64,000 nucleotides of DNA from Flectonema sp. DT1601 (lineage: Eukaryota): the NCBI GenBank assembly GCA_964019425.1, contig OZ025801.1, positions 992,001 through 1,056,000 of the forward strand, read 5' to 3'. Position numbers and translations under genes: made by a program. Each line of letters begins with the position of its first letter. Position 1 is the first letter of the stretch. A model generated the notes under the pieces. The model was not told the origin of the DNA, ran no database searches, and saw nothing but the letters and a program-made list of their open reading frames with translations. Shown one piece after another: positions 52,995 to 55,900 of the stretch.

Positions 52995-55900
52995 ATGCCT
53001 CCAAAGAATACAGAAGTAGAAGAAGCAGCAGTAGTAGCAGAAAGGACTAAAAAGATGGAATCAGTCTGGTCTTACATACTACGGGAGATAATAAACTTCT
53101 TAATATCGAATATTATAATGCTATTAATATTAGCTGTGGTTGTTTGTTGGCAGACGAAGTTATTTGGATACTATGCTGTGGAAGCTGTAAACGACCGAAA
53201 AAGAAGCGCAGCAATGGAAAAACTTCCTTTTGGAAAAGTTGAAGTTAAAATAACAAAACCAAACGAAGAGGGTAATCGAATTGTTGGAGGTGATTATGTT
53301 ACAGCAATCGTAACCGGATATGATGAAAAGGGAATGCAATTCTACTCCAGTCGTAATAGACAACAGGCTACTGGACCTTTAGTAATTGCCGTCACATCAG
53401 GTGAATCCATTATGGGATTAGAAGACGGTTTGCTCCACATGCGTGTTGGTGAAACTGCAACAGTACGCGTTCCCCCAGACATGGCATTTGGCACTCGTGG
53501 TAAGCGAGCATGGAATATTGAACCTTGGGCAGTTCTCACCCTTGAAATTACTGCGATAGCGGCTTCTAGGGAAAAACCAGCCGAAAGTAATGATATCGAA
53601 ATACCTGTTGCCCAGAGAGAAAAGAAAGTCCAGGAAGCACAAATTGACGAACCTACTTCCACGACAGACACACATGAGCTCAGCAGCTTTCTTGAAAAAG
53701 CTGGCCTCGGAAAGTTTACTAAAAAACTCGAACACATTGGACTCACCACTATCGAAGATTTCAGGTATGATTTATTGTGTTTGTGTATGGAGATTGACCA
53801 ACACGTGCCAGAGCCCCTTTCCTTAACTTGTAGGAGAGCGGGTGTAGTTCTCGTGTGAGACTCTACTCGAAGTATTCCCAATGAAGACTTTCAAATCCCT
53901 TTCGCTTATGTCGCTGCCTTCTAAAACACGTGCCAGAGCCCCTTTCTTTACCTTGTAGGAGAGCGGGTGTAGTTCTCGTGTGAGATCTCACTACTTGAGA
54001 AGTACGATAGCTGTGAGTGTTCTGCTATTCTATTAACACTTTCTAGTTGACGATTTGAACATAGGATCCCGATATGACGGATATGTGGCTCGCCTCGTCC
54101 CTCTCTCCGATCAACTAGTCGCTTCGTAGTCAGTTTTTCCATCACTTAAATACACGTGCCAGAGCCCATTTCTTTAACTTGTAAGAGAGCGGGTGTAGTT
54201 CTCGTGTGAGACATTATTCGAGGTAAGTTCCTAATGAAGAGAGTACTGAGTACTTTCAAGTCCCTTTCGCTTATGTCACTGCCTTATAAAACACGTGCCA
54301 GAGCCCCTTTCTTTACCTTGTAGGAGAGCGGGTGTAGTTCTCGTGTAAGACTTTACTACTGGACAAGTTGCGTACGACCGTCTGTGTTTGTGGGTTTTCT
54401 ATTCTCTTCAAGGAATCGCATTATTTCTAAAAATTTCACAATTCACACCGTCAAGATCCGCCACGAATCCGTTGTCCGATTCGCGCTTCACCTTCGATCC
54501 TGCGCGACAACCTTCGTCTTCGGTACTAGGTGATGACGTCGTCGCCATCTGCCCCAAAACCGTACTCAATCCGTCCTGCTCCGATAGCTTGTTTGCTGTT
54601 GTTACTACCAACTAAGCAGTCAAACTATCGCTGAAACACGTGCCAGAGCCCCTTTCTTTAACTTGTAGGGGAGTGGGTGTAGTTCTCGTGTGAGACTTAC
54701 TTTTGTTTACAGATGTAGTTGTGCAGTGTTTTCTGATTAGCATCATCCTTGTGCGATACTGCAGCAGTTCGAGTGAAAGGACGCAACACGTGCCAGAGCC
54801 CCTTTCTTTACCTTGTAGGAAAGCGGGTGTAGTTCTCGTGTGAGATGTTTAATTTTAATTTCATATTTTCCTCCCTTCAAAATGTTGTTAGTCTCCTTAT
54901 TGCTTTTCTTGCTTTTCTTGAAACCAGCGACTGTATCACGTTACCGAAAACACGTGCCAGAGCCCCTTTCTTTGCCTTGTAAGAGAGCGGGTGTAGTTCT
55001 CGTGTGAGACATTACTCGAAATTAATTCCCGATGAAGAGAGTACTGAGTATTTTCGAAACCCTTTCGCTGATGTCGCTGCCTCCTAAAACACGTGCCAGA
55101 GCCCCTTTCTTTACCTTGTAGGAGAGCGGGTGTAGTTCTCGTGTGAGATGAGTAGTCTTCTTCCTGTTTTTAGTATGTGAAGTTCCTGAAATACTTCTGC
55201 AGCTTTGTACTCATTTACCTAATACTCAGAACCTGTACTCCAGTTGCAGCAATCCAAAACCCAGTACATCGAGCACACACCCTCACCAGTTGGCGAGAGA
55301 ACCTTCAGTCTTAGCACTTAGCACTTGGGTTTATTTTGTTTTTTTTTGGCGATTAACTATGCCAGATGCCAAGCAAACCAAGCGAGTGACGATCAACTTC
55401 CTTCAGAGGTGGAGGAGCAGCGGCAGTGTGGCAAACCTCCTCCTTCATCTGCATCCATGCTCCAGTGCAGGTGAGCCACTCTCTTCATCAAGTTGATGCT
55501 ATCGCCTGTAACTGATGCATGTGACGTTATAGTCTGCAACAGCTGCAGCGGCGACTTAGCCGACAACGTACAAGTGCGGTGCGACGGCCTCAATATCGCG
55601 CAGAAAAAACGCGCTATTATTTCTGCAGTACTATTGTTGGTCTTATAAGGCCAGAGATTCTTTGAAAAACCAGATCACCGAACCAAAAACACGTGCCAGA
55701 GCCCCTTTCCTTAACTTATAAGAAAGTGGGTGTAGTTCTCGTGTGAGATTACACCATTCCCGTGTGTTGTTAATTATTAAATAATATAGAAGGCGATAAC
55801 ATAATAAAATTAAAACAGTTTGCTGGAGTCTGCAGATGATCTTCCAGAGGATCTTCCAACTTTTGCAAAAAAGAAGTTATTATCCATAGCACGGAAACTG

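Follow-up and report, generated by a model that had tools for sequence, protein, structure and literature searches.

Nine 60-nt hairpin units, all on the + strand, lie in one intron of a protein gene in the window (the whole 64 kb stretch of Flectonema sp. DT1601 DNA that was analysed), and they are very probably copies of one single-hairpin H/ACA-like guide that is predicted to pseudouridylate a single uridine in helix 61 of the LSU rRNA, the equivalent of yeast 25S U2345. The earlier note on this DNA had proposed a euglenozoan single-hairpin AGA-box pseudouridylation guide repeated in a cis-intron, and this proposal is supported by the fit of the units to the known consensus and now has a predicted target in helix 61. 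The RNA class and intronic clusters are already known, and the layout is mildly unusual; new here is the predicted helix 61 target.

The host gene is divided by the intron in the following way.

52995–53764, + strand: host exon 1, which encodes a TM-like segment, an FKBP domain and the first half of a SAM-like domain; its start is the ATG that aligns with the start of the ortholog
53765–55818, + strand: GT-AG cis-intron of 2054 nt
55819–56086, + strand: host exon 2, which encodes the second half of the SAM-like domain, a charged tail and the stop codon

Exon 1 matches Pfam FKBP_C (E 8e-15), and the sole non-self relative of the exon 1 protein (1709 candidates, E 1e-8 or better) is P0002 of the diplonemid Flectonema neradi, to which it is 56% identical in an alignment that runs to the last residue before the 5' splice site. 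Similarity to P0002 picks up again past the 3' splice site, where 38 of 83 residues of exon 2 are identical (E 9e-17); P0002 also has a weak SAM_2 match (E 0.021) that is below the cut-off. Splicing 52995–53764 to 55819–56086 gives a single open frame of 345 amino acids that is collinear with P0002 across the junction, and because of this splice-spanning collinearity with the F. neradi ortholog the predicted 2054-nt GT-AG intron that hosts the array is well supported. The same comparison makes the host a likely diplonemid. The claim that all units are inside an FKBP-SAM intron of this length is thus upheld, its boundaries (53765–55818) being backed by the ortholog; unit 1 begins 36 nt past the 5' splice site and unit 9 stops 70 nt short of the 3' splice site. 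The gene call P0001 (328 aa, 52872–53858) is an unspliced prediction that runs past the 5' splice site and ends at a TGA within unit 1, and retention of the intron would truncate the SAM-like domain of the host protein.

The long ORFs of the window are on the + strand, and this same-strand gene arrangement matches the one described for P. papillatum (PMC10161547). A single-exon ORF at 12680–15100 unites tyrosinase, peptidoglycan-binding and matrixin (Peptidase_M10) domains, an unusual combination, and is possibly of bacterial origin. A dispersed ~190-nt repeat is found at 48032–48206 and 63385–63576 (74% identity), beside long poly(A) tracts, and is possibly a small retroposed element.

The nine units are placed within the intron as follows.

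53801–53860, + strand: unit 1, with stem I at 53801–05/53852–56, the 5' pocket strand at 53806–12, the 3' pocket strand at 53844–51 and AGA at 53858–60
53926–53985, + strand: unit 2, identical to unit 8
54152–54211, + strand: unit 3, with one upper-stem pair broken and a T instead of an A before stem I
54291–54350, + strand: unit 4, with a G to A change in the linker preceding AGA
54636–54695, + strand: unit 5
54786–54845, + strand: unit 6, 1 nt different from unit 2 but with unrelated flanks
54950–55009, + strand: unit 7
55089–55148, + strand: unit 8, the same as unit 2 in sequence
55689–55748, + strand: unit 9, the most diverged, 4–7 nt different from the other units

The starts of the nine 60-nt units described earlier, and all eight spacer lengths (in order 65, 166, 79, 285, 90, 104, 79 and 540 nt), were reproduced exactly. 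Pairs of units differ by 0–7 nt, and 50 of the 60 columns of the unit alignment are invariant. Of the ten variable columns, six belong to the 15 columns of the upper stem and bulge, three to the eight of the apical loop and one to the linker preceding AGA. Stem I, both pocket strands, the four basal stem II pairs and AGA never vary across the nine units; stem I, the pocket and AGA together take up 28 columns, and all ten variable columns lie elsewhere (P=0.0009 on the assumption of independent columns). This agrees with the description of the basal stem, loop strands and AGA as invariant, and two companion statements, that the changes are mostly pairing-neutral and confined to the upper stem and loop and that the upper stem is 14 nt from AGA, were recovered as well, since 142 of 144 pair cells are kept, the one linker change is that in unit 4, and 14 nt separate stem II from AGA. 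The changes in the stems of these near-identical copies are one-sided only, with no pair altered on both sides, and the covariation score of such near-identical units was matched by 459 of 500 shuffles, so that these copies lend the stems no covariation support. A covariance model made from the units has nine matches in the 64 kb at 91–97 bits (by construction) and its next match is at 16 bits, which sets the array well apart from chance. A search of metagenomes for the unit gave 0 loci, and no ortholog was found there.

All nine units have an MFE structure that is the same as the centroid, and that consists of a 5-bp stem I, a 7+8-nt internal loop, a bulged upper stem, one linker base and AGA; their fold z-scores are -1.1 to -2.7, and that of the reverse strand of unit 2 is -0.03. 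The consensus given for trypanosomatid H/ACA-like RNAs (PMC2613932) has a length of 57–91 nt, a stem I of 5–8 bp, AGA 1–3 nt after stem I, 5–11 nt on the 5' side of the pocket, 13–16 nt to AGA, target duplexes of 3–9 nt, a perfect basal stem II, an apical loop of at least 5 nt and usually an A before stem I. The corresponding values for the units are 60 nt, 5 bp, a linker of 1 nt, 7 nt on the 5' side of the pocket, 14 nt to AGA (8 pocket + 5 stem + 1 linker) and duplexes of 4 and 7 nt, with a perfect basal stem II, an apical loop of at least 5 nt, AGA in nine of nine and an A directly before stem I in eight of nine. The consensus rules were also applied blind to both strands of the window and gave 11 AGA ends. 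The eight that are array units took the top ranks, unit 3 failed the A/C rule, and the remaining three AGA ends fall within long ORFs. Every testable feature places the units among the euglenozoan single-hairpin AGA-box guides, and this is likely the class to which they belong. A canonical two-hairpin box H/ACA snoRNA was rejected, each conserved unit being one hairpin that ends in AGA. Membership in a named Rfam snoRNA family was likewise rejected, as there are 0 family matches to the units at the gathering threshold. The best match below the threshold is TB11Cs5H1 (E 2.1; the weak hits to this model have E values of 2–8), and the units score 15.5–18.9 bits against models such as TB11Cs5H1 and SNORA19, with thresholds of 45 and 80. 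TB11Cs5H1, the closest trypanosomatid family in Rfam, is an SSU guide with pocket strands other than those of the array.

The target pairing was read on the rDNA of relatives and not on the host's own rRNA. In diplonemid rDNA the 5' pocket strand UGCCAGA pairs with UCUGGCG and the 3' pocket strand GUAG pairs with CUAC, and a U and one more base stay unpaired between the two duplexes, 14 nt from AGA. A panel of rDNA, fetched without reference to the target by a scan of genome contigs for a conserved LSU motif, contains 31 loci; at the motif, all but one of them show eukaryotic LSU context, and Rfam confirmed rRNA in the six panel loci submitted. In the fold's own register the top site in this panel is CUAC-U-N-UCUGGCG in the LSU, with a score of 27 (locus L087, and a second copy in L077), and the next scores 21; nine registers were tried, and the best scores of the eight alternatives are 23–26, at scattered places. 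The full-pairing UCUGGCG variant is present in two of the 25 readable panel loci (31 minus L069, a chance match, four loci too short at the site, and L076, which was misread). Most panel eukaryotes read UCUAGCG or UCCAGCG at the site, and the 5' pocket strand pairs only 2–3 nt there. The panel loci, L063–L093, come from the prokaryotic genome collection, and 30 of the 31 seem to be contigs of eukaryotic rDNA that were included in bacterial or archaeal assemblies. A scan of viral contigs for rDNA gave 62 loci, none of which is in rRNA context.

A scan of metagenomes for the UCUGGCG variant and the complement of one C/D guide of the window, a pattern that holds 11 target bases, gave 37 loci. Ten of these are long enough to contain SSU V4, of which seven match a diplonemid-specific primer pair taken from PMC12772313 and three fail; the primer-matched product is 506–509 bp, with six exact matches and two mismatches in L109. 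A tree of 31 of the 37 loci separates the primer-matched from the failing set at 100/100, with the bootstrap not fully settled, and by the bases upstream of the site 28 of the 37 are of diplonemid type and nine of another, non-diplonemid euglenozoan-like type. Pocket pairing extends over 4+7 nt in loci of the diplonemid type and over 6+7 nt in the remaining nine, so that four of the eight invariant 3'-strand bases pair in diplonemid loci and six of the eight in the other group. The nine loci of this second group were rejected as diplonemids, all three that are long enough having failed the diplonemid primer pair. These loci (L111, L123, L127 and six more) share LSU variants with the diplonemids and have a compact LSU region of about 3.4–3.5 kb, and it is their rDNA that gives the best pairing, both with the AGA guide and with one of the window's C/D guides.

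The helix 61 site ranks first in all four full SSU+5.8S+LSU sets (27 vs 16, 25 vs 20, and 30 without a runner-up twice), and in the two full diplonemid rRNA sets, which have 1332 and 1408 uridines, no other uridine scores as well. Shuffled pockets equal the real one in 14, 37, 0 and 0 of 1000 trials for the four sets, which are not independent tests because the loci had been preselected for 11 target bases. Independent support comes from the first rank of the site in the unselected panel, from its being a known pseudouridine position, and from the carriers of the rare variant, which are mostly relatives of the host. An earlier guess at the target, just downstream of the window C/D target in LSU helices 74–75, was rejected; its pattern has 0 loci in the genome contigs, and the diplonemid loci are without the needed bases.

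As a control, the C/D guides of the window pair over 12–16 nt with the same diplonemid LSU sequences. These guides belong to two tandem arrays of one 248-nt unit at 3582–8532 and 36189–39544 (20 and 13–14 copies), which are about 96–97% identical and 28 kb apart. The 248-nt unit carries two likely box C/D snoRNAs, and its C/D guides pair 15, 12 and 13–16 nt with diplonemid LSU rRNA, 60–340 nt downstream of the target of the AGA guide. The region 35174–43216 contains four near-identical copies of ribosomal protein L19e (98–99%), and the second C/D array is between copies one and two.

The predicted target is homologous to the one used by yeast snR9, which is a two-hairpin H/ACA RNA, so its relation to the single-hairpin units of the array is a functional analogy and not a shown homology; human SNORA48/ACA48 guides the same site. 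Yeast 25S U2345, in helix 61, is pseudouridylated via snR9, and its context as printed in PMC5062969 is CCUAUCUAC-U-AUCUAG. Mass spectrometry found 9% U, 74% Um, 4% pseudouridine and 13% methylated pseudouridine at this position, which is only about 16–17% pseudouridine, the modification being in competition with 2'-O-methylation by snR65 (PMC5062969). Loss of the yeast modification has no growth effect (PMC5062969), and this dispensability at the equivalent site limits the importance of the predicted modification.

The spacers that separate the units include the following.

53861–53925, + strand: spacer 1, family A, homologous to spacer 3 (54212–54290) and spacer 7 (55010–55088)
53986–54151, + strand: spacer 2, family B, homologous to spacer 4 (54351–54635)
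55149–55688, + strand: spacer 8, 540 nt, without a relative in the window

The copies had been thought mostly to lack shared flanks, and this is contradicted by the spacers, five of eight of which have a relative, and by a 202-nt unit-spacer-unit block that is repeated at 90% identity. Homology is present in 4 of the 36 spacer pairs, the local alignment score of each being reached by none of 300 shuffles; the family A spacers have 81–92% local identity, and spacers 5 and 6, like spacer 8, have no relative in the window. By spacer family the order of the array is U-A-U-B, U-A-U-B, ..., U-A-U. In block pair 3/7 the spacer differs at 15 of 79 positions and the units at 4 of 120 (Fisher p=3.5e-4), the units being about five-fold more conserved than the co-duplicated spacers. 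Spacers and units were duplicated together, and divergence was then faster in the spacers; precise unit-wise copying, which had been suggested alongside unit-limited conversion, is therefore not needed, and some conversion limited to the units is possible. The layout is likely the outcome of an ordinary process in which unit-plus-spacer blocks were duplicated in tandem and selection acted on the guide, and conversion between units probably contributed. What remains is the likeness of unit 2 to unit 6 (a single difference) and to unit 8 (no difference), though spacers 5, 6 and 8 have no relative; this likeness could be due to conversion among the units (the only sequence common to all copies) or to strong selection.

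Four invariant bases of the 3' strand are unpaired in the sampled diplonemid LSU, and guides of T. brucei often list a second, snRNA target (supplement 2 of PMC4855143). Both points would suit AGA-box guides that have another or an additional target (an snRNA, the spliced-leader RNA or a host-specific rRNA site) and for which the helix 61 match is partial or secondary. We consider this improbable, as the helix 61 site is first in all four full rRNA sets and is a known pseudouridine of yeast, and as the pocket follows the lineage variant.

It is more improbable still that a MITE-like or retroposed element, a small hairpin able to move or to copy itself, entered the intron time and again. Mobility has been described for mammalian snoRNAs (PMC1687206), units 5, 6 and 9 adjoin spacers without a relative and units 6 and 2 differ by just 1 nt, but all nine copies share the same strand and the same intron, no other copy is present in the 64 kb, the terminal inverted repeat is just 5 bp, and the spacers were duplicated along with the units. 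The earlier note had named MITE-like target-site duplications as a mark against the guide interpretation, and none was found beside the units, where the longest flanking direct repeat is 0–3 nt. We give the lowest probability of all to a CRISPR-like or cassette-like system in which the hairpins would serve as signals for processing and the liberated spacers would be the functional small RNAs. This idea draws on the repeat-spacer look and the varied spacer lengths, and it fares poorly against the spacers themselves, whose lengths run from 65 to 540 nt and which are paralogous, quicker to diverge than the units and devoid of AGA hairpins. Spacer-rRNA duplexes have at most 12 Watson-Crick pairs and no adjacent D box, whereas the real C/D guides of the window pair 12–16 nt beside D boxes; the repeat itself has guide anatomy and a predicted target. 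Six stop-free frames from spacers 4 and 8 have no Pfam match above the cut-off. Degenerate C/D snoRNAs in the spacers, with C-box-like words at 53881, 54234, 54530 and 55032, were considered and rejected, as no rRNA duplex is found beside a D box.

If the units are guide RNAs as we propose, then by analogy with the known pathway the nine copies would be transcribed as part of the host pre-mRNA, and the unit RNAs, about 64 nt long once released, would be bound by Cbf5/Nhp2/Nop10/Gar1. With all nine copies in a single intron, trimming a debranched lariat from its two ends is not enough to set the inner copies free; their release would require endonucleolytic cuts in the spacers, after which they would be trimmed to protein-protected ends. 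Yeast cuts such precursors with Rnt1 (PMC10557570). The helix 61 uridine of the LSU rRNA would then be pseudouridylated under guidance of the units. The array itself likely grew by tandem duplication of unit-plus-spacer blocks, and the spacers would have drifted afterwards while selection, probably helped by inter-unit conversion, kept the guide.

The units share their size, single hairpin, AGA box, stem and pocket dimensions and 14-nt rule with the trypanosomatid AGA-box guides (PMC2613932, PMC3273796, PMC4855143), and also the presence of repeated gene copies, those of trypanosomatids being processed from polycistronic transcripts. Trypanosome guide genes are described as mostly intergenic, in repeated clusters or solitary (PMC3273796); unlike these, the array is nine copies of one guide in a cis-spliced intron. 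A trypanosome guide for the helix 61 site was not found in the portions of PMC3273796 and PMC4855143 that were covered.

The array resembles known intronic clusters in having several snoRNA genes per protein-gene intron and a common precursor to be cut. Drosophila has same-intron clusters of H/ACA isoforms. Intronic polycistronic snoRNA clusters are also known in plants and Ostreococcus (PMC7671301), and in all of these the RNAs are canonical two-hairpin H/ACA or C/D, whereas those of the array are of the euglenozoan single-hairpin type. Euglena has snoRNA clusters with multiple isoforms (PMC7671301), and the multi-copy snoRNA genes of Euglena gracilis, like the array, have conserved RNA-coding copies and strongly divergent spacers, a pattern that has been attributed to locus duplication (PMC2784804). 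The Euglena U3 copies (PMC2784804), unlike the array, are neither intronic nor pseudouridylation guides. No description of diplonemid snoRNAs was found in a literature search by title or start of abstract, and the word "snoRNA" is absent from the main text of the P. papillatum genome paper and from the seven supplementary files that were covered.

A bolder scenario, which we think rather unlikely, is that diplonemids, which unlike trypanosomes cis-splice widely, moved single-hairpin AGA guides into introns and tuned their dose by copying the 60-nt unit alone, as units 5, 6 and 9 are near-identical and have unrelated spacers. A ninefold dose might then push the helix 61 uridine toward pseudouridine as opposed to 2'-O-methylation, and such an intron would lend itself well to a search for the euglenozoan enzyme by which snoRNA precursors are separated.

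The array likely extends the single-hairpin AGA guides from trypanosomatids and Euglena to a third large euglenozoan group, and it provides a precise predicted target and such a guide hosted in a cis-intron. The machinery that cuts euglenozoan snoRNA precursors was called unknown in 2008 (PMC2613932), and nine copies in one intron are a compact substrate for asking how these precursors are cut.
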